64,000 nucleotides of DNA, taken from the NCBI GenBank assembly GCA_964608765.1, contig CAZSPD010000001.1, positions 147,223-211,222 of the forward strand, written 5' to 3'. The notes beneath the pieces were generated by a model. It did no database searches and was not told the DNA's origin. It saw only the letters and a list, made by a program, of their open reading frames with translations. The stretch comes from Candidatus Woesearchaeota archaeon (GTDB taxonomy: Archaea; Nanobdellota; Nanobdellia; Pacearchaeales; GW2011-AR1). Made by a program: the position numbers and the translations under genes. Positions 3,370-27,371 of this stretch are shown in pieces (position 1 is the first letter of the stretch; every line of letters begins with the position of its first letter).

Positions 3370-4824
3370 TTATCCAGAGAAATCCTCTGCTTTGTAAAGA
3401 AACACTTTGGTTTCACTATCTTTCCAACACTCTGCTTCCATTCCTCCTTTAATACACAAATTACCTAAGAAATTCTCTTTATTTGGAATAAATTCCCAGA
3501 CACTAGGTAAAAATGTACTTTGGTGCTCCCCTCTTATTAGAACAATACCATATTTTCTTTCATCTAGTTTTTTAAGTAATTCTTCATAATTTTCATATTC
3601 AAATAATGTAGGAATATCCAAAACACTAATATCAATTACAGCCTCTTCTAATTCTTTTTTTGTTAGTGGGAAAAATCTTTCATCATTAACTGCAGCATTT
3701 ATTGAATTTTCAATAATACATTCATATAAACTTTTTTGAGGGATAATATGTCCAATACATCCCCTCAGCTCATTATTTTTAGAAAATGTAACAAAACACC
3801 CTCTCTTTTCTTTAAGTTTTTCAGGAATATTTTTTTCATCTATTTTTACACTCTTTCCACTCTTAAGATATTCTTCTGTATTTTTTCTTGCGAGATTTAA
3901 CATAAATTCTTTTTCTTTATAATTAAATTCACTTTCATCAACAAAAACAATTGCAGAATATCCCACTACACTTGTATTATCTCCACTTATATCTCCTGAA
4001 TTTGCATAAGATATAAAATAAGGTTTCCAAGATTTTTCTTTAGCAATTTCTAAAAGACTCGCAACAGCCCAAGGAGCATCAATTTCAGCACTAAATATAC
4101 CCTTAGAATCTAAATCCATTATTCTCCCAATAGAATATGAGTCTAAATCAATTGCTTGATTATACTCATGATAATGAGACAAGTCAACACTAACAACAAT
4201 TAAATCATCTTCTTCTAAATATTTTAGAATTACTTCTTTTAGTTCAACACTGTTTGTTTCACCAACCAACATTGGAACTATTTCAAATTCTTTTAATTTT
4301 GATTGTAAAAAAGGTAATTCAATTTCTAAAGAGTGTTCTTTTTCGTGTGCTTCTTCAATATTGAATATAGTTTTTTCATTATTTACTATTTCTTTTGCTT
4401 TTTTACTAACTTTAATGTTTCCAAGTGGAGTAGAGTAATATTTAAAAGATGAAATTGAAACATTTTTTAAAAAATAATAATGACTCGGTCCCATTAAAAA
4501 AACTGTTTTATAATTTTCTTCTAATTGATTAAATGCACTTGCTGCTATTTTTCCAGAATAAACATAACTAGCATGAGGAACAATCACTGCCTTTACTTTT
4601 CCATTAAAATCTTTTTTTTCATAACCTTCAAAATATTCTTTAATTGATTTTTCAAGTTCTACTTTATCCCCCGGATACCATGTCCCAGAAAACTGAGGTT
4701 CTCTAATATGTTTTTCATTCATTTTATTTTTTGGATTAATAAAAACTATTAAAATTAATAGAATAACAAAGATAATTGTAATATAAATAATTGTTTTTTT
4801 TAGCTTACCTCTTCTTCCAGACAT
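3370..4824 (-). CDS. Membrane-anchored fusion of a MEMO-like domain (AmmeMemoRadiSam protein B) and AMMECR1 (protein A)
   Basis: 484 aa. N-terminal TM helix (IIYITIIFVILLILIVFI). MEMO-type VPHASYVYSGKIAASAF and VDLSHYH. C-terminal AMMECR1-type CFVTF and LRGCIGHI. Confidence 0.75.
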   Translation of the reverse strand: MSGRRGKLKKTIIYITIIFVILLILIVFINPKNKMNEKHIREPQFSGTWYPGDKVELEKSIKEYFEGYEKKDFNGKVKAVIVPHASYVYSGKIAASAFNQLEENYKTVFLMGPSHYYFLKNVSISSFKYYSTPLGNIKVSKKAKEIVNNEKTIFNIEEAHEKEHSLEIELPFLQSKLKEFEIVPMLVGETNSVELKEVILKYLEEDDLIVVSVDLSHYHEYNQAIDLDSYSIGRIMDLDSKGIFSAEIDAPWAVASLLEIAKEKSWKPYFISYANSGDISGDNTSVVGYSAIVFVDESEFNYKEKEFMLNLARKNTEEYLKSGKSVKIDEKNIPEKLKEKRGCFVTFSKNNELRGCIGHIIPQKSLYECIIENSINAAVNDERFFPLTKKELEEAVIDISVLDIPTLFEYENYEELLKKLDERKYGIVLIRGEHQSTFLPSVWEFIPNKENFLGNLCIKGGMEAECWKDSETKVFLYKAEDFSG

Positions 4825-20214: not shown

Positions 20215-21492
20215 TTATTTAAATTTTAAATCACTAATATACATTTCTTTTATTATTTTACTATTTTTAATTTTCCATTTCTCTAAAAACTCTTTTAATC
20301 CAAGAGTTACTTTTTCACGAGCATAAAGTCTGTTTTCTTTTTCATATATTATTTTATGCTCTTTTATGAATTTTTTACAATTTTCTTTATCATCATTATA
20401 AGGCCCAGAGTATATTATTTCCTTCTTTTTTTCAGTAACAAAAAAATACTGTGCTACTTCCCCTTTTCCATATTCAAATCCTTTCTTGCTTATTATAAAA
20501 AACACACCTATTTCTTTACCTAAATAATTAAAGAATTTTAAGAGCTTACTACCTGCAATATCCCCTTCAGGTTTATTTGTTTTAGCTTCTATTAAGATAA
20601 ATTCTTTTCCTCTTTTAATTGAAGATTCCCTTATTTTTTCAATATCTTCTTTTTTTACTTCAAAATTTTTTATAGAAGGTTTTTTTATAAACTCAATACA
20701 AGATTTTTGAAATTTTTCAAAAGTTTCTTTACTTAATGCAGCTAAAACATTTCTTTGTTTATAAGTAGGATCAATTAAAATAACAGGAGAATTTAATTTT
20801 GAAGTATTTAAATCAATTAAAATATCTTTTTTATTTTTATACTGTTTTTCAATATCAATCAAAAGTTTATCTTTTCCCACTTTAGTCATAGCTTGAATGA
20901 ATTTTTCAAATCCCTTGTAATAATAAACAAGTAATTCTAAGGAATACCCTGAAAAACCATGAATATAAGATTCTGCACCATAGCATTTATTAGCATAGCA
21001 AAATGATTTTGCTATTTTTATATCATCTAATATTTTTTTATCTTTTATTTTTTTATTTACATATTTCACATGAAGATAAGATAAGTCAGTTATATTTTCA
21101 TGTTCTTTAGAACTATTTACTTTTTTAACAGGTATTAGTTCTATAAAGAAATTTTCATTAATATCTATTCTAAAATAATCTCTTGAGCCGTGTATAACAG
21201 AATGCTTGTATGTTCCTCCAATAAGTTTCTCAGTTAATTTAGAAATTTCATTGTTTTTGTATTTTTTATCATACCTCACAAACACATCAACATCATATTT
21301 GTCTTTTTTTATTACTGTTCCTTTTGCAAAACTCCCTCCAATAAATATTTCAGCATCTATATTTGATTTTTTTATATTTTTTTTAAGTGTCTCGCAAAAT
21401 AAATTAACTTCTTTTTTTATTTCTTTTAACTCTTTTTCAGAAGGGTTGCATTTATCGAGGACTTCCTTAAGAATCTTTTCGTTTTTTCTCAT
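20215..21492 (-). CDS. cca: Archaeal class I CCA-adding enzyme (tRNA nucleotidyltransferase)
   Basis: 425 aa. IGGSFAKGTVIKKDKYDVDVFV pol-beta NTase motif and archaeal CCA-like architecture. Confidence 0.85.
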   Translation of the reverse strand: MRKNEKILKEVLDKCNPSEKELKEIKKEVNLFCETLKKNIKKSNIDAEIFIGGSFAKGTVIKKDKYDVDVFVRYDKKYKNNEISKLTEKLIGGTYKHSVIHGSRDYFRIDINENFFIELIPVKKVNSSKEHENITDLSYLHVKYVNKKIKDKKILDDIKIAKSFCYANKCYGAESYIHGFSGYSLELLVYYYKGFEKFIQAMTKVGKDKLLIDIEKQYKNKKDILIDLNTSKLNSPVILIDPTYKQRNVLAALSKETFEKFQKSCIEFIKKPSIKNFEVKKEDIEKIRESSIKRGKEFILIEAKTNKPEGDIAGSKLLKFFNYLGKEIGVFFIISKKGFEYGKGEVAQYFFVTEKKKEIIYSGPYNDDKENCKKFIKEHKIIYEKENRLYAREKVTLGLKEFLEKWKIKNSKIIKEMYISDLKFK

Positions 21493-21892
21493 AAGGTTTT
21501 TGTATCTCCTTTAACTCTTTTACACTTTTATTGAGAGTAGAAGCTAAATCAATTATATATTTTCCTTCTTCAAGTTTGTAGATTAGGGGTCTTTTTTTAT
21601 TAAATACATTAACAATGTCTATTTCAAATTTACCTTCACCCACAACTCTAACAGACTCTAAATCAAGTATCACAGGTGTTTCTTCATCTGTAATTCCAAC
21701 TATTTCCCTTATATCCTTTTCAATAACAGATTTTTCTTTTTCAGGTATTTCAACTATCTTATTTTTTATTTCTTCAAGTTGTTCTTGCTTTATATAAAAG
21801 AAAAACCTTCCACCACAATTACTACATCCATCTAATAATTCTTTACTTCCCAAAGGTATTATCTTAGAACATTTAACACACTGATGTGGCAT
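21467..21892 (-). CDS. Zn-ribbon protein, DUF2072/OapC-like
   Basis: MPHQCVKCSKIIPLGSKELLDGCSNCGGRFFFYIK resembles the N-terminus I recall for the archaeal Zn-ribbon-containing protein family that accompanies an Era-like GTPase and DUF2073. TATA-like box about 30 nt upstream. Confidence 0.6.
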   Translation of the reverse strand: MPHQCVKCSKIIPLGSKELLDGCSNCGGRFFFYIKQEQLEEIKNKIVEIPEKEKSVIEKDIREIVGITDEETPVILDLESVRVVGEGKFEIDIVNVFNKKRPLIYKLEEGKYIIDLASTLNKSVKELKEIQKPYEKKRKDS

Positions 21893-21945
21893 TTTAAATT
21901 ACATTTCATAAAATCAATGCAAGTTTATAAAATTAATGAATTCAA

Positions 21946-22605
21946 CTAAGAAACTCTTTTAATCTCTCCAAGAATCTCTTTTAACACACCTTTTAATCCA
22001 TTTTTGTTAGAGAACTTATTTTCTAATGAGGATAATGTGTAAAATACACAATAAAATAAGAATTTATTATAATCCTCAAATTTTTTTAGTCTATCTAATA
22101 TCTCTGAGGATAATTTTCTGTTAAAATAAATAGTTTCCATATAAAAATATGCAAAATCTCTTTCAGGGTAAGAATATCCAGAATGTTCAAAATCGATTAA
22201 CCCCAATTTATCTTTTTCTATAAATATATTCTGAGGCCTAAAGTCTCCATGAACTAATAACCCCTCGTTTCCTTTTACACTGTATAATATAGGAGGAGGT
22301 ATTTCTTTTAAATTATTCTTAATATATTCTATTTTAGGATATTCATTTAGCATCCCTTTTTTTAAAGGAAGTTTTTTAAAAAGTCTTTCAACATCATAAA
22401 TATTCCATTTTTTTAATTCTTTTTCAAGAAAAGTTCCATTTACTTTTTCTATTTTTAATACTAAATTATCTTTATTTTCAGATAAAATTTCTGGAACAAT
22501 AAAATTCTCTTTAAAGTAATCCCTATATTTTAATTCATTTTCATATTTTTTAATGTCCGAGAATCTCTTTTCTATGTGTGAATCATATATTTTTACTTTT
22601 TTCAT
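21946..22605 (-). CDS. APH/choline-kinase-fold phosphotransferase
   Basis: 219 aa. Catalytic loop LVHGDFRPQNIFI and LIDFEHSGY (HGDxxxxN / DFE). Start overlaps the rSAM gene end by 23 nt. Confidence 0.7.
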   Translation of the reverse strand: MKKVKIYDSHIEKRFSDIKKYENELKYRDYFKENFIVPEILSENKDNLVLKIEKVNGTFLEKELKKWNIYDVERLFKKLPLKKGMLNEYPKIEYIKNNLKEIPPPILYSVKGNEGLLVHGDFRPQNIFIEKDKLGLIDFEHSGYSYPERDFAYFYMETIYFNRKLSSEILDRLKKFEDYNKFLFYCVFYTLSSLENKFSNKNGLKGVLKEILGEIKRVS

Positions 22606-24499
22606 TTTTTAAATCAAAGTAATCTTTAAAAATATCAACTAACCACCCATTATCTAATTCTTCAAAATAATCCTGATTAGCATAGAAAGATATCGCTCCT
22701 CTTATTCCTAAAGAATATATTGGCTTAATATCAGAATAATAACTATCTCCAATATAAACTAATTCCTCAGGTTTTATATTTATTTCATTAAAAAATTCTT
22801 TAAAATACTCTAAAGAGGGTTTTTTAAATTTCTTAGATTCAAAGATATCCTCAAAAAGATTTAAATTTATTTTTTTTTCTTTTAATTCAGTAATTATACT
22901 CTCTTTTTTATTTCTAGATAAGATATATACCGGTAGATTATACTTATTTTTAATTTCATTTAATTGATTTATTAAGGGTTTATTTATTTTTGAGTTTTCT
23001 TTCCATTTTTTTAAATATAGATATATCATATCATTTACTTTTTCAGGTTTATTTAACTCCTCTGAGATTTTATTAAATATCTCCCTTATATCATAAAAAT
23101 CTTGTTTTTCTATCTCTTCCATATACCCGTATTTTTTAGCTACAAAATTAATTGCTTCATAAGTAGGTTCACGAGAGATTATTGTTCCATCATAATCTAT
23201 TGCTATTGCTTTTGGAGGGCTCAAATATAAATCTTTTCCAAATTCTTCAATAAGTAAACTCAAAAAAGGATACATTCTACTATCTGGTGAATCTAAACTA
23301 CCTTCAGTTAATTCAGAATAATAAGGGCAACTATTTCCGCATATTAGAATAAATGGGCATTTTTTATTTACACAGTACTCTTTATTTAGGGGGGATAAGA
23401 GGTTCCATTTCTTAAAAGTTTCTCCTCCTTTAAAATCCAGATTATCTATATTATAATCAAAATATTTTTTTGTACCTGAAAATCCATGGCAAGGACCCAC
23501 TAATCCCGTGGGGTGTACTACTATTTGATTTCCACACGCTCCGCAGTCTTTAAGATAAGGTTTTTCATTAATTATATATTTTAATCTTCTTAAGATTCTA
23601 TCCTCATAGATTTTTTTTCTCCTTAATATTCTATAAGAATTATAAAGTTGAAAAGCACAATATTCTGAATCTACAAATAATTTGTTTCCCTTAATATTTT
23701 CCAAAGGTAAGTTAAATCCAATTGATTTCACTTTTTTGAACTTTTTTGAAATCCATTTAGATATTGAAGGTAAGTAATCTATATTGTGGCTATTGATTGT
23801 AATAGAAAAAGAAACAATTACTCCATCAGAGAGATATTTTTCTATATTCCCTATAACTTCTTTAGATGTGCCTAAATTACTATGGTTTATTCTAGTTTTA
23901 TCATTAATTTTATTAAACCCATCAATAGAAACAGACACTATTACATTATTATCCTTAAAAACATTAGACAGTTCTTTATCATAGATAGATCCATTAGTGT
24001 TTATTCCAATATGTGTATCTTTGGATAATTCCCTTATTTTAGTTATACACTTAATTAAAACATCTTTATTCAATAAAGGTTCTCCACCATAGAATATTAT
24101 CCTTTTTTCATTAGATTTGGAATTATTAAAAAAATAATCAATTGCTTTATTTGCATTTTCCCAAGTTAAAACATTTCTTTCTTTACTTTTATAATTTCCT
24201 TCAATAAAGCAATAAGGGCATTTAAAATTACAATTATCTGTTAAAAGAAGGTACATTAAACTCAATTCTTGTTCTGTATTATTAATTATTTTCTTATAGT
24301 GCTCTATAAATTTATTTTCATAATCATTCTCAACAAGTATTCTATTTTCAGATAAATAAGGACTTTTATTTATTCCTTTTTTTATATCTTCAAGATTAGA
24401 ATTACTAAATAAAAAAAACCTGTGTTTATAGGGGGAATAAACTATTGAGTAATCAAGATATTTTCTAATATATAAAAAAGGATTTAATATCTTTTTCAT
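22583..24499 (-). CDS. Radical SAM/SPASM peptide-maturase-like enzyme fused to a C-terminal HAD-superfamily domain
   Basis: 638 aa. CNFKCPYC (Cx3Cx2C) after a leader of about 90 aa. SPASM-type CGNQIVVHPTGLVGPC and CVNKKCPFILICGNSC. HAD motifs AIDYDGT, ILSRN, KKPS and GDSYYSD. Confidence 0.85.
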   Translation of the reverse strand: MKKILNPFLYIRKYLDYSIVYSPYKHRFFLFSNSNLEDIKKGINKSPYLSENRILVENDYENKFIEHYKKIINNTEQELSLMYLLLTDNCNFKCPYCFIEGNYKSKERNVLTWENANKAIDYFFNNSKSNEKRIIFYGGEPLLNKDVLIKCITKIRELSKDTHIGINTNGSIYDKELSNVFKDNNVIVSVSIDGFNKINDKTRINHSNLGTSKEVIGNIEKYLSDGVIVSFSITINSHNIDYLPSISKWISKKFKKVKSIGFNLPLENIKGNKLFVDSEYCAFQLYNSYRILRRKKIYEDRILRRLKYIINEKPYLKDCGACGNQIVVHPTGLVGPCHGFSGTKKYFDYNIDNLDFKGGETFKKWNLLSPLNKEYCVNKKCPFILICGNSCPYYSELTEGSLDSPDSRMYPFLSLLIEEFGKDLYLSPPKAIAIDYDGTIISREPTYEAINFVAKKYGYMEEIEKQDFYDIREIFNKISEELNKPEKVNDMIYLYLKKWKENSKINKPLINQLNEIKNKYNLPVYILSRNKKESIITELKEKKINLNLFEDIFESKKFKKPSLEYFKEFFNEINIKPEELVYIGDSYYSDIKPIYSLGIRGAISFYANQDYFEELDNGWLVDIFKDYFDLKNEKSKNI

Positions 24500-24514
24500 C
24501 TTTAATAAATAATC

Positions 24515-24721
24515 TTAAATCCAATCTTCTATAGGAACTGTGCTTACTCTATCGTCAATAGTGCAACTTCCACAGTTACATATTCCACAACTTCCACAAG
24601 AACAATCGCTTCCACCCCCACAAAGGGAGCACATTGCAACAATACTATCTTTATGTATTAAGTTGATATCCCCATAAAGTTCTATTTTTTTAACTGCGTT
24701 ATAATTTGGATTATACTCCAT
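24515..24721 (-). CDS. Cys-rich 68-aa peptide, candidate RiPP precursor
   Basis: MEYNPNYNAVKKIELYGDINLIHKDSIVAM-CSLCGGGSDCSCGSCGICNCGSC-TIDDRVSTVPIEDWI. Stop is 15 nt before the rSAM start. Has its own TATA-like box. Confidence 0.7.
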   Translation of the reverse strand: MEYNPNYNAVKKIELYGDINLIHKDSIVAMCSLCGGGSDCSCGSCGICNCGSCTIDDRVSTVPIEDWI

Positions 24722-24743
24722 AGGAAACTCACATATTCAAACT

Positions 24744-24753
24744 ATTTAAATAT
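24744..24753 (-). promoter_or_regulatory. TATA-like box upstream of the Cys-rich peptide gene
   Basis: TATTTAAATA lies 23 nt upstream of the ATG at 24721, in the 69-nt gap after the DUF2073-like gene. Confidence 0.35.
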
Positions 24754-24790
24754 TATTATAAAATTAATGATGAGTTTAATCTAGTGTATT

Positions 24791-25198
24791 TTACTTATTT
24801 AATAATAACTCAATCTTTTTAGGATTTCTTTTAATTTCCTTAACTATTGTTGCAGGTCCTATTATTGTTATTGCACCTAAATCTCCTTTACTTAGTGCTT
24901 TTATTAATCCGCTTCTCATCTTATCTAATATACTCATCTCATTACTTCCACTAATTACAGCGAGTTCTATGCCTCTAAATCCTTTAATATGCCCTATCAT
25001 AGCCATTGTATCTCCTATTAATCTTGCTTCTTCTTCTGATTTAAGTCTTCCCTGAATAAATAAAATATTATTTCCAAGAACAATATTAAGGATTTTTTTT
25101 ATTCTTTCATGACTATTTAAATCCCTTATTTCAGAATAAGGAATAAACTGCATTGAAAATCCTTTTATTTTCCCTAATTTTTTATCCCTCTTTGCCAT
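24791..25198 (-). CDS. DUF2073/OapB-like conserved archaeal protein
   Basis: 135 aa. ERIKKILNIVLGNNILFIQGRLKSEEEARLIGDTMAMI...FRGIELAV matches my recollection of the DUF2073 pattern. Lies directly downstream of the GTPase. Confidence 0.55.
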   Translation of the reverse strand: MAKRDKKLGKIKGFSMQFIPYSEIRDLNSHERIKKILNIVLGNNILFIQGRLKSEEEARLIGDTMAMIGHIKGFRGIELAVISGSNEMSILDKMRSGLIKALSKGDLGAITIIGPATIVKEIKRNPKKIELLLNK

Positions 25199-25219
25199 TT
25201 TATTATATTCTTTTTATTT

Positions 25220-25861
25220 TTAAATGCTTTTTGCTAATTTAAATATTGATTCGTAAAATTCTTCAAAGTTTTCACCACTCTTAGCACTTACACCCACAAC
25301 ATCATATTCTGGAAAAGCTGCTTCTATTTTTTTTAAATCTGCTTTCTTTAAATCTACTTTATTTCCAACAATAAGAACAGGTATTTTTCTTGCAACTAAA
25401 TTACCTACTATTGTTATATTTACTTGATTATATGGGTTTTCTGATGAGTCTAAAACTATTACAACAACATCCATATCATCAAGCCACTTTATGCTTTCAA
25501 TAACACCTTGTGTTGCTTCTTTAGCTCTTTCTTTTGCTTCTTTTTTCTTCATATTATATTTTAAGAAATCTTCATAATCTATTTTTGTAGCTATTCCTGG
25601 AGTGTCTATCATTTTAAAAGTTAAAGATTTACCTTTATACTTTATTTCTACTTTTTCTTTAAATTGAATATTTCTAGTTTCATGAGGGACTTTACTTACT
25701 GTTCCAATTTCTTGTCCTGTAAAATCTTTACAAATCCTATTTGCTAAACTTGTTTTACCTGCATTTGGAGGGCCATAAAATCCTAGTTTGATTTCCCTTC
25801 TATTTTTAAATAAATTATTAAATATTTTTTTAAAAAAATTCTTGAATACTTTTATCGCCAT
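25220..25861 (-). CDS. Era-like small GTPase (OapA-like)
   Basis: G1 GPPNAGKT, G3 DTPG, G4 NKVD, G5 SAK. N-terminal amphipathic/basic segment. Confidence 0.8.
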   Translation of the reverse strand: MAIKVFKNFFKKIFNNLFKNRREIKLGFYGPPNAGKTSLANRICKDFTGQEIGTVSKVPHETRNIQFKEKVEIKYKGKSLTFKMIDTPGIATKIDYEDFLKYNMKKKEAKERAKEATQGVIESIKWLDDMDVVVIVLDSSENPYNQVNITIVGNLVARKIPVLIVGNKVDLKKADLKKIEAAFPEYDVVGVSAKSGENFEEFYESIFKLAKSI

Positions 25862-25901
25862 ATTAATGTTTTATCAAAATAGGTTTATTAAATTTGTGTT
25901 A

Positions 25902-27371
25902 TTATTTTTTAAGTGAACTTTTTTTCACTTCTTTTTTTGGTTCTTGAGAGCCTATATTCATAGGGCTTCCAACAATTCCTTTTATTTTCTTATTTTCATA
26001 CTTCCTCATAGCATAATTTATTTGTTCCCTAGTCCATCCTGCCTTTTTAAGATTCTTTTCAACAGTTTCCCTAGGAATATTTTTTATTTTTGAATCGTGT
26101 ATATAAACCATTATATTATACATATTATTTTTTGTTTTAAACAAATATGTTTCATATTTTCTAATATACCATCTCTGGACTAAAATATAAGTTATGGCAA
26201 ATATTAAGAGCAGTAAAAAGATAACTAAAATAAACCACAACCATCTATTTTGAGCTTTCCATCTTTCATATTGTCCACTATCAACAGGAGTTAATTTATC
26301 AATATCTGGAGAAATAAACACAGGGACACTAAAGAAATCAATATTTGATTTAGTTGCAAATACAAATTTATTAGAAATTTCATTTAAGACTAAATAAAAG
26401 TAACCTTCTCCTGAATAAACTCTAGAAATATTATCAAATACATTGTCTCCAAGGTCTTTAATTATTGCATAAGGAGCAGAATTATAATTCTCTGTTTTTC
26501 TAGATGAAAAATCAAATATGTTGAGGATTTCTATTGTTTTATTTTCATAAGTTATCTCTATTTTTTTAGATTCTATAGTTGTTACAATATTTTGATTATT
26601 CCATAAAAAAATAGCATCTAAATAGTTTTCTCTATTTCCTCTAAAATCAATTCTACTTAAATCTGCAAGAACTGAAAGATCTATTGACTCTCTTTCAGGA
26701 TAATATCTCATAGGCTGAGAGTAGGACATTAAGTAGAAGTTTGTAGGAAGATTTATTCTATTTATACTTTCTAAAATTTCTTCTTGTGATTCAAGTTGCT
26801 GCTCTAAATATTTATTTTCAATAGATTTTAATTCCAATTCAATTGATTCTATATTTAGGTATTTATTTAAAATACTTTGAGTGTAGATATCATATGTCTC
26901 TATTTTTGATTTAGAGGCATTTAGAAGAGCTTTTTTCTTTTCTAATGCATAATCTATTTCCCCCTTAATTAAAGCCACTTTAAACTCTTTTTCAAATATT
27001 TTTTTACCATCTAATTCAATGTAATAATCAAACACTTTTTCTGATGAAGACATAATAATTCCTGTTTCATTAAAACTAAGAATTTGAGGTGCAGAATCTA
27101 TAGAAGTATTTGTGATATCTGAAAACTTCCCCTCATATTCTATATTTCTCCCTAAAAGTTCATTTAATGAAACCTCATTTCCAAGAGAATCTATAAACAC
27201 TGATTCTAAACTTTGATTTAAGAAACTTATATTTAAATCTAATTTAAGTGTTTCAGAGGGAGAATAGTTACTAACTATTAAACTTCCTTCTTTATAGTAT
27301 TCAAATGAAGCAGAGGCAATTCCTATAAATACTATGCTAAATAATAAGATAAATACACTTTTACACCTCAT
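25902..27371 (-). CDS. Type I membrane glycoprotein-like surface protein with a small cytosolic tail domain
   Basis: 489 aa. Signal peptide (VFILLFSIVFIGIASA), many NxS/T sequons, TM (WLWFILVIFLLLLIFAITYILV). Tail carries KKAGWTREQINYAMRKY. Confidence 0.6.
   Translation of the reverse strand: MRCKSVFILLFSIVFIGIASASFEYYKEGSLIVSNYSPSETLKLDLNISFLNQSLESVFIDSLGNEVSLNELLGRNIEYEGKFSDITNTSIDSAPQILSFNETGIIMSSSEKVFDYYIELDGKKIFEKEFKVALIKGEIDYALEKKKALLNASKSKIETYDIYTQSILNKYLNIESIELELKSIENKYLEQQLESQEEILESINRINLPTNFYLMSYSQPMRYYPERESIDLSVLADLSRIDFRGNRENYLDAIFLWNNQNIVTTIESKKIEITYENKTIEILNIFDFSSRKTENYNSAPYAIIKDLGDNVFDNISRVYSGEGYFYLVLNEISNKFVFATKSNIDFFSVPVFISPDIDKLTPVDSGQYERWKAQNRWLWFILVIFLLLLIFAITYILVQRWYIRKYETYLFKTKNNMYNIMVYIHDSKIKNIPRETVEKNLKKAGWTREQINYAMRKYENKKIKGIVGSPMNIGSQEPKKEVKKSSLKK

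Follow-up and report, generated by a model that had tools for sequence, protein, structure and literature searches.

Lineage-specific insertion of a radical SAM/SPASM-HAD cassette into the arvB-arvC spacer of a DPANN archaeon

Gene content of the locus

The DNA analyzed here (the window) is a stretch of 64,000 nucleotides from contig CAZSPD010000001.1 of a Candidatus Woesearchaeota archaeon, whose genome (GCA_964608765.1; hereafter G000) is a metagenome-assembled draft of 808 kb in 23 contigs that is 82% complete. Positions 20215-27371 of the window hold eight co-directional, tightly packed open reading frames (ORFs) on the minus strand, in which three genes for a Cys-rich peptide, a radical S-adenosylmethionine (rSAM) enzyme and a kinase, together called the cassette in the following, lie between homologs of the archaeal genes oapB (arvB) and oapC (arvC) (Table 1). 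A previous reading of the sequence alone had listed six of these ORFs on the minus strand, in the order Era-like GTPase, DUF2073 protein, the three cassette genes and DUF2072 Zn-ribbon protein, and had proposed that the cassette is an accessory insertion, mobile or lineage-specific, which splits a conserved gene triad. All six ORFs are present at their positions and the observation is confirmed; the inference of a lineage-specific insertion splitting the triad is supported by the data described below.

Table 1. Predicted genes and sequence features of the arv locus in the window, in the direction of transcription.
Feature	Position	Strand	Evidence or remark
489-aa membrane protein (TM489)	25902..27371	-	Conserved neighbor upstream of the GTPase
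ArvA/OapA-family small GTPase, 213 aa	25220..25861	-	MMR_HSR1 E 7e-16; weak N-terminal Arf match
ArvB/OapB (formerly DUF2073), 135 aa, full length	24791..25198	-	PF09846 E 1.1e-14, 54.6 bits vs cut-off 27
Left copy of TCATTAATTTTATAA	24756..24770	-	Putative oapC promoter duplicate; -49..-35 of peptide ATG, off the canonical TATA register
Inserted DNA, 2,816 bp (promoter and three genes)	21940..24755	-	Two repeat copies; alignment of joined flanks to empty sites
Putative TATA box of the cassette, TTTAAATA	24743..24750	-	-29..-22 of peptide ATG, inside the insert; coincides with the genome-wide TATA peak
Cys-rich precursor peptide, 68 aa, 8 Cys	24515..24721	-	No Pfam match
Radical SAM/SPASM maturase with C-terminal HAD phosphatase-fold domain, 638 aa	22583..24499	-	Radical_SAM and HAD_2
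APH/choline-kinase-like kinase, 219 aa	21946..22605	-	PF01636 E 2.6e-10
Right copy of TCATTAATTTTATAA	21925..21939	-	Putative native oapC BRE/TATA promoter kept in place; -47..-33 of oapC ATG
ArvC/OapC (formerly DUF2072) Zn-ribbon protein, MPHQC..., 141 aa, full length	21467..21892	-	PF09845 E 2.4e-21, 76.8 bits vs cut-off 23
CCA-adding tRNA nucleotidyltransferase (cca)	20215..21492	-	TIGR03671 and PF09249; conserved downstream partner of oapC

The two proteins flanking the cassette do belong to the DUF2073 and DUF2072 families, with Pfam scores well above the respective cut-offs. OapB is 72–89% identical to its orthologs in the genus across residues 1–135, and OapC 62–89%. The oapB gene starts 21 bp downstream of the GTPase gene, and the latter encodes a small GTPase with the motifs G1-G5 (GPPNAGKT, DTPG, NKVD, SAK). 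The label "Era-like" needs correction: an assignment to Era itself was rejected, as the Era models score far under their cut-offs (53 bits vs 237, and 39 vs 116) and a KH domain is missing. Residues 2-19 reach a helical hydrophobic moment of 0.66, the maximum of the protein (mean 0.24), and would form a strongly amphipathic N-terminal helix; judged from its sequence, the 213-aa protein has the features of the ArvA/OapA family. The cca product matches TIGR03671 with E 5e-66 (223 bits, under the 281-bit cut-off of that model), and its gene overlaps oapC by 26 nt. TM489 has no match in Pfam.

In Haloferax volcanii, oapA, oapB and oapC constitute one operon that is needed for the formation of extracellular vesicles and has been renamed arvA/B/C (PMC10927574, PNAS 2024). 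ArvB, the DUF2073 protein, has a SepF-like fold and its knockout cuts vesicle production 3.1-fold, while knockout of the DUF2072 Zn-ribbon protein ArvC increases it 1.65-fold (PMC10927574). Among 1,666 genomes with ArvA, including seven DPANN phyla, ArvB is found directly downstream in 93% and ArvC within two genes in 78%, and the authors call the position of the latter "slightly less conserved" (PMC10927574). The triad adjacency and the name oapA/B/C given in the sequence-only reading were thus correct but outdated, Pfam now using OapB and OapC for the two families and the operon being called arvA/B/C (PMC10927574). The G000 locus matches that of H. volcanii, the organism for which the vesicle role is known, in its three gene families and in their order: a GTPase with an N-terminal amphipathic helix, the DUF2073 protein directly downstream and the DUF2072 Zn ribbon after it. 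It differs in that three foreign genes split arvB from arvC, and because of this insert arvC is the fifth gene after arvA in G000, whereas it lies within two genes in the relatives with an empty site. In addition, arvC of the G000 clade has what appears to be a leaderless-type promoter of its own and is predicted to be translationally coupled to cca. The only Orc1/Cdc6 homolog detected in G000 is located on another contig (C3:23932-25122) than the arv locus (C1), and the name "origin-associated" therefore does not describe this genome.

Synteny in related genomes and derived state of the insertion

The survey comprised 41 related genomes, and the loci of 20 relatives were fetched for detailed synteny using tblastn. 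PF09846 and PF09845 each match 36 of the 41 genomes. Both genes reside on one contig in 29, where the gap between them is below 210 bp in 17 genomes, 270–540 bp in six and above 700 bp in a further six (G000, G001, G007, G010, G019 and G023), which all belong to the genus of the window. The order TM489-GTPase-OapB-OapC-CCA is invariant in all 20 fetched loci, TM489 adjoining the GTPase by tblastn in 17 of them, and the conserved triad on which the insertion hypothesis depends thus exists in the relatives.

No homologs of the peptide, the maturase or the kinase were found in the 20 fetched loci. The kinase is encoded in G000 alone among 24 genomes of the genus and none of the remaining 23 has the cassette, so that the term "lineage-specific" is justified; within the order, a full-length rSAM-HAD fusion occurs in one of 301 genomes. 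Other rSAM homologs at the order level (34–37% identity, ~469 aa) were rejected as copies of the cassette, as they represent a different sub-family without HAD domain or kinase. In a maximum-likelihood tree calculated from concatenated GTPase, OapB, OapC and CCA sequences, G000 is sister to a clade of G023, G021 and G008 with 98% support. The empty-site arrangement was found in both nearest relatives, G008 and G021. A single gain on the G000 branch therefore explains the data, while ancestral presence of the cassette would need many precise losses.

Borders of the insertion

The insert starts 34 nt before the ATG of the peptide gene and ends 6 nt after the stop codon of the kinase gene. An exact direct repeat of 15 bp, TCATTAATTTTATAA, flanks it on either side, with both copies on the same strand. 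In the window this 15-mer occurs in these two copies only, with ~0.23 expected by chance even if one mismatch is allowed, and the whole 808-kb assembly contains exactly two copies, both at the borders; a repeat of such length was obtained in ~0.5% (about 0.005) of shuffled flanks. Each of the relatives G002, G008, G016 and G021 has the exact 15-mer once, at -37 or -47 of oapC, and G019 has it with one mismatch; the empty sites of the first four share the motif ATCATTAATTTTATAAACTT upstream of oapC. The left copy in G000 retains the ancestral upstream context (CATCATTAA), matching the empty sites of G008 and G016, and the right copy retains the ancestral downstream context (TATAAACTTG), of which ACTTG is common to G008. 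When the flanks are joined with one repeat copy, the resulting 68-nt spacer can be aligned collinearly with actual empty sites all the way between the stop codon of oapB and the ATG of oapC. Thus, synteny and empty sites, the phylogeny of the gene block, the flanking duplication and the reconstructed empty site all agree that an accessory insertion splits the triad. The possibility that the cassette itself had brought in the repeat was rejected, since the peptide-gene promoters in other cassettes lack the 15-mer. A metagenome scan with the 22-mer of left flank plus repeat retrieved nine contigs, all of them chance matches without arv or cassette homology.

A chimeric join during assembly could in principle have placed foreign DNA between arvB and arvC, the more so as G000 is a draft in 23 contigs and as several congener assemblies break exactly in this spacer, which marks the region as hard to assemble. 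Such an artefact would, however, require that chimeric joining had happened twice, independently, at one and the same 15-mer, which is shorter than usual assembly k-mers. Furthermore, the insert has a putative promoter at its start and stops 6 nt past a stop codon, the codon usage of the cassette matches that of the host, and the contig measures 215 kb with normal synteny on both sides. We therefore regard an assembly artefact as extremely improbable.

Promoters

TATA-like hexamers in G000 peak genome-wide at -30..-26 from the start codons (0.46 per gene vs a background of ~0.09), and this sharp peak indicates that most mRNAs of this organism are leaderless. An A-rich transcription factor B recognition element (BRE) at -33/-32 accompanies the peak, and the pattern can help to define start codons and promoters in other parts of the genome. 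In G008, G016 and G021, the 15-mer places TTTATAA at exactly -29 of oapC, a position that marks the 15-mer as the probable native oapC promoter and arvC-cca as a predicted separate transcription unit in this clade. The right repeat copy of G000 lies 10 nt further from oapC than the 15-mer of G008, as it does in G002.

The sequence-only reading had assigned TATA-like boxes at both boundaries to the cassette. Elements are indeed present near both, but only the one at 24743-24750 appears to be cassette-borne, and the cassette of contig L032 carries TTTATAAA at the same distance from its peptide gene start. The element at 21925-21932 would be the native oapC promoter of the recipient, and the TATA sequence of the left repeat copy, at -42 of the peptide gene, is off-register. 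Neither spacer contains a run of at least five T, and read-through from arvA-arvB into the cassette is possible.

The arvB-arvC junction as an insertion hotspot

In the fetched loci, the distances from TM489 to the GTPase (15–246 bp), from the GTPase to OapB (11–269 bp) and from OapC to CCA (-53 to +28 bp; 18 loci) never exceed 500 bp, and the junction between OapB and OapC ranges from 40 to 3,461 bp, exceeding 500 bp in six of the 20 loci and in the window. Moreover, contigs end inside or right at this spacer in five congeners (G003, G004, G013, G015 and G020), and oapB and oapC are kilobases apart in G009 and G014. The cargo found in the slot is diverse: G001, G007, G004 and G009 encode one or two Laminin_G_3 proteins that carry pilin-type signal peptides, G019 has a Fic-domain gene, which lies on the opposite strand, G010 has genes for aIF2beta, DUF5679, DUF424 and aIF1A, and G023 has a 232-aa ORF assigned as HNH-like by motif inspection only, a call that neither Pfam nor PHROGs confirmed. 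On the tree, this distribution implies at least five independent events, and the arvB-arvC junction is an insertion hotspot in its behavior. The entry points within the spacer differ: relative to the promoter, the Fic gene lies upstream and the HNH-like gene downstream, whereas the cassette entered at the TATA box itself. This speaks for a transcription-unit boundary that is permissive to insertion rather than for a site-specific attachment (att) site.

Some details of individual slots may be added. The Laminin_G_3 proteins (L001 1722-5084, L002 5450-7288, L042 2887-4239 and L044 5913-7664) form a secreted family that supplies the slot cargo of five congeners; an archaeal pilin-type signal (KGLSTIVATLLII...) is combined in them with Cys-rich modules in tandem (C..LGYECG...CG.C) and with a Laminin_G_3 domain at the C-terminus, and two tandem paralogs occupy the slot of G001. 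In G014 (L046 6715-7329), oapB consists of three separate tblastn pieces and oapC has moved elsewhere, which suggests a frameshifted or decaying oapB gene. The ATG of oapC is replaced by ATA in G023 (L005 about 4360-4390) and by ATT in G018 (L015 about 760-775); both have a Shine-Dalgarno-like GGAGGT ~8 nt upstream, which is absent from the relatives of the leaderless type. This change could reflect decay of the gene, or a switch to Shine-Dalgarno-dependent non-AUG initiation once the position of its own promoter had been lost.

Bacterial genomes offer well-documented cases of integration hotspots located between conserved core genes. As in these, a single core-gene junction repeatedly takes up varied accessory cargo while the neighboring junctions are fixed. 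The archaeal case differs in that it involves neither an integrase nor a tRNA or a fixed att site, that the entry points vary inside a promoter spacer of ~60 nt, that the hosts have sub-megabase DPANN genomes, and that 15 bp of a putative TATA promoter were duplicated in one of the events.

The position could instead be functional, the cassette and the other cargo having been selected for co-transcription with the vesiculation genes and the product being made or exported with extracellular vesicles. This would agree with the eight co-directional, tightly spaced genes, with the plausible read-through from arvA-arvB across spacers without T-runs, with the surface- or conflict-related nature of much of the cargo (pilin-signal LamG proteins, Fic, RiPP-type module; RiPP, peptide made by the ribosome and modified post-translationally) and with the role of ArvABC in vesicle formation in Haloferax (PMC10927574). 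However, the cassette brings a canonically placed TATA box of its own and arvC keeps its promoter, the module works outside the arv locus in all other carriers, and the cargo also includes translation-factor genes and the opposite-strand Fic gene. Selection for this position is in our view unlikely. In its most far-reaching form, the spacer would be a functional "cargo slot" of a vesiculation operon, from which the RiPP-type module, LamG proteins and Fic would be co-expressed and leave the cell on or in extracellular vesicles, a scenario that we consider quite unlikely. We favor the reading that the spacer tolerates insertions because arvC would have its own promoter and the spacer would thus be a transcription-unit boundary, which would also explain the independent acquisition of other cargo in congeners.

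Predicted function of the cassette genes

The peptide gene is single-copy in G000 and ends 15 nt upstream of the maturase gene, and homologous cores are found in six other cassettes. Its core, CSLCGGGSDCSCGSCGICNCGSC, is conserved in the cassettes of L032, L034 and L038, which share the pattern VAMCSLCGGG[ST]xCSCGSCGICNCGSC with the window, and a related CSCGxCGYCDC core occurs in L036, L037 and L039, the longer pattern CSCGxCGYCDCxCSxC being common to a Micrarchaeia-like group. In an alignment of 18 members of the maturase family, the rSAM cysteines of the CxxxCxxC motif (C90/C94/C97), the SPASM cysteines (C319/C337/C376/C381/C387/C391) and the catalytic residues of the C-terminal HAD domain (PF13419, E 1.5e-11) are invariant, the latter being D435/D437 of motif I (IDYDGT, DxD), K560 of motif III and G584-D585...D590 of motif IV (GDxxxD). 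The nearest solved structure is 5WGG/5WHY (E 3e-18), which we take to be the SCIFF maturase CteB. All of the best-matching models score far under their cut-offs: FibroRumin TIGR04136 with 178.6 vs 400, PapB with 148.3 vs 340 and SCIFF TIGR03974 with 95.9 vs 425. The kinase gene overlaps the maturase gene by 23 nt, its translation contains an HGDxxxxN catalytic loop and a DFE motif, and a homologous kinase follows the maturase in six other contexts.

The cassette resembles the SCIFF/ranthipeptide (CteB, PapB) and FibroRumin systems in having a Cys-rich precursor immediately upstream of an rSAM/SPASM enzyme, in the CxxxCxxC motif and auxiliary-cluster cysteines of this enzyme, and in its best profile and structure matches. 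It differs from them not only in the low scores but also in the C-terminal HAD domain with intact catalytic motifs, in the APH-like kinase that follows, and in the confinement of the family, with ~20 members, to DPANN archaea. APH-like kinases tailor RiPPs in class V lanthipeptides (LxmK) and thioamitides. With these systems the cassette shares an APH-fold kinase in a RiPP-type cluster and conserved Ser residues in the core peptide, but a HopA1-like lyase or a cyclase is missing and a HAD phosphatase-fold domain is present instead. An identification of the kinase as LxmK was rejected, since NF038156 yields 16.6 bits against a cut-off of 315 and the cassette has no lyase or cyclase gene. The HAD domain in place of these enzymes suggests reversible phosphorylation rather than elimination. 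For the rSAM/SPASM domain, formation of thioether cross-links within the Cys-rich core is the probable reaction, the kinase and HAD domains are likely to phosphorylate and dephosphorylate conserved Ser residues or a cosubstrate, and the product is most likely a thioether-cross-linked RiPP with a phosphorylation/dephosphorylation step in its maturation. A literature search found no paper describing this architecture of Cys-peptide, rSAM-SPASM-HAD enzyme and kinase.

A second RiPP-like family was noticed in the order (L022-L030; in G000 at C6:39303-39896). It consists of a ~469-aa rSAM/SPASM enzyme and a ~246-aa protein with an HExxH-like motif (HESLHL), and some of its loci contain small Cys-rich ORFs (L023 1236-1451, L027 1171-1320; e.g., ...CSCQCACDCVCICDC...).

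Distribution and horizontal transfer of the module

A collection of 5.8 billion proteins contains ~20 full-length rSAM-HAD fusions of 38–70% identity, some of which are labelled Micrarchaeia. In named genomes, a search with the family alignment, which relied on generic rSAM motifs, recovered as true members only L053 (Micrarchaeia) and L054 (Woesearchaeota), the remaining matches being mostly unrelated rSAM/SPASM genes; a search of named-genome contigs with the single protein found nothing, and no relative of the module was found on viral contigs. The module is present in at least six other DPANN contigs and has different neighbors each time. In L032/L033 (maturase 68% identical), peptide, rSAM-HAD and kinase genes stand between an NrdR-RNR operon with a DDE transposase remnant and the genes for thioredoxin, Tmk and RpoB, in L034 (52%) the module is located between rpS2 and a Cas12a CRISPR locus, and L036, L037, L038 and L039 (40–48%) provide four further unrelated neighborhoods. 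The fusion gene of L031 (70%) occurs alone, without peptide or kinase gene.

Several of these loci deserve a closer description. The cassette of L034 (8961-13917; GCA_054039175.1), a DPANN metagenome-assembled genome, is directly beside the Cas4-Cas1-Cas2 and Cas12a (Cpf1) genes. L031 4783-6669, which encodes the most similar maturase, is situated between NUDIX and MetRS genes with no recognizable precursor peptide or kinase nearby, and may represent an orphan gene or else a module copy in decay. The transposase remnant of L032/L033 (4792-5253, 153 aa, DDE_Tnp_1) is located ~0.5 kb upstream of the closest complete cassette copy; no other gene related to mobility was seen in the vicinity of the module in any of its copies.

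Horizontal transfer was assessed by comparing the identity of the maturase to G000 with that of core proteins encoded on the same contig. In L031 the maturase reaches 70% vs 58% for EF-2, 61% for L7Ae and 40% for MetRS, in L034 52% vs 35% for rpS2 and 39% for Dph, and in L032 68% vs 66% for RpoB and 40% for Trx. Maturase identities above those of core proteins, together with the patchy distribution, indicate that the module has spread horizontally among DPANN lineages. The composition of the cassette, which the sequence-only reading had suggested to compare with the flanks, does not deviate from the genome (codon-usage z-scores of +0.7, +1.2 and -0.7 and GC3 z-scores, for GC content at third codon positions, of -0.4, -0.2 and +1.2 for maturase, kinase and peptide, respectively), and this test does not discriminate. 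The missing signal is compatible with an AT-rich DPANN donor of similar composition (other carriers have GC contents of 28% in L032 and 25.5% in L034) or with amelioration, but does not constitute positive evidence.

These data also bear on the opposite polarity, in which the cassette would be ancestral to the genus or older and would have been lost repeatedly and precisely between the 15-bp repeats, each time leaving a single promoter copy. Direct repeats can mediate precise deletion, and a single-copy 15-mer in the relatives is the leftover expected from it. Yet many independent precise losses would be needed in place of one gain. All 23 of 23 congeners lack the cassette, the two nearest relatives among them, and so do all outgroup families. 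Furthermore, the similarity to distant lineages is higher for the maturase than for EF-2 or MetRS, and every other carrier has the module outside the arv locus. We give ancestral presence next to no credence.

Mode of insertion and overall interpretation

We consider it highly probable that a horizontally acquired 2.8-kb module was inserted at the arvC TATA box between arvB and arvC. On the terminal branch leading to the G000 species, a compact unit of its own TATA promoter, Cys-rich precursor, rSAM/SPASM-HAD maturase and APH-like kinase would have been acquired from another DPANN lineage and entered the arvB-arvC spacer of ~70 nt, thereby duplicating 15 bp. The right copy would keep arvC-cca under the native promoter, the left copy would be an off-register remnant, and the cassette would be driven by the TATA box that it brought along. 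The arrangement of left flank, repeat, insert, repeat and downstream flank fits two mechanisms and could have arisen either by fill-in repair of a staggered break or by one crossover through which a circular intermediate integrated at short homology.

Alternatively, the cassette could constitute, or belong to, an autonomous or trans-mobilized element, transposon-like or integrase-dependent, for which the arvC promoter serves as specific attachment site. The genome-unique, exact 15-bp repeat has the appearance of the target-site duplication of a transposon, the module occurs in many contexts, and a DDE transposase remnant accompanies one of its copies. However, the insert contains the three cassette genes only, with no transposase or integrase in it or next to it, no DDE_Tnp_1 gene was detected anywhere in G000, and the insert ends are not inverted repeats. 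The nearest tRNA gene is 20 kb from the insertion site, an Rfam scan near the site gave no match, and other cargo enters the spacer at different nucleotides; the integrase gene and the fixed att site, often in a tRNA gene, that characterize an integrase-dependent element are thus missing. A general mechanism with target-site duplication is rejected because the six other loci lack flanking repeats above chance, and the module was not found on viral contigs. A dedicated mobile element is for these reasons very unlikely. Of the designation "mobile" in the sequence-only reading, what holds is that the module has moved between lineages; a mobility gene is not carried.

Several points weigh against the favored insertion by horizontal acquisition. 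There is no recombinase, terminal inverted repeat, tRNA or non-coding RNA target at the insert that would account for its entry, and the duplication is not reproduced at the other copies of the module. The L032 maturase is barely more similar to G000 than is RpoB, and the cassette cannot be told from the host by its GC, GC3 or codon usage, giving no compositional sign of foreign origin. The genome is an incomplete, fragmented draft, and the promoter assignments are based on sequence position only.

Implications

To the initial observation the present analysis adds the exact borders and the duplication of the putative promoter, the identity of the triad with arvABC, the evidence for transfer, the hotspot behavior of the junction and the negative result on composition. 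It provides a nucleotide-level record of how a sub-megabase archaeal genome without recognizable recombinase gained a complete and, as predicted, self-promoted biosynthetic module, and in DPANN it is rare for a gain to be resolved so cleanly. The picture of the arvABC operon is refined, as in this DPANN clade arvC would have its own leaderless-type promoter and be coupled to cca, and the recurrent entry of accessory genes between arvB and arvC offers a concrete reason for the published remark on the less conserved position of ArvC. The Cys-peptide/rSAM-SPASM-HAD/kinase module itself is conserved, moves horizontally as a unit, is restricted to DPANN archaea and constitutes a defined target for heterologous expression. 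If the cargo-slot scenario were true, the junction would hold an exchangeable set of effectors directed at hosts or competitors of these episymbiotic archaea.

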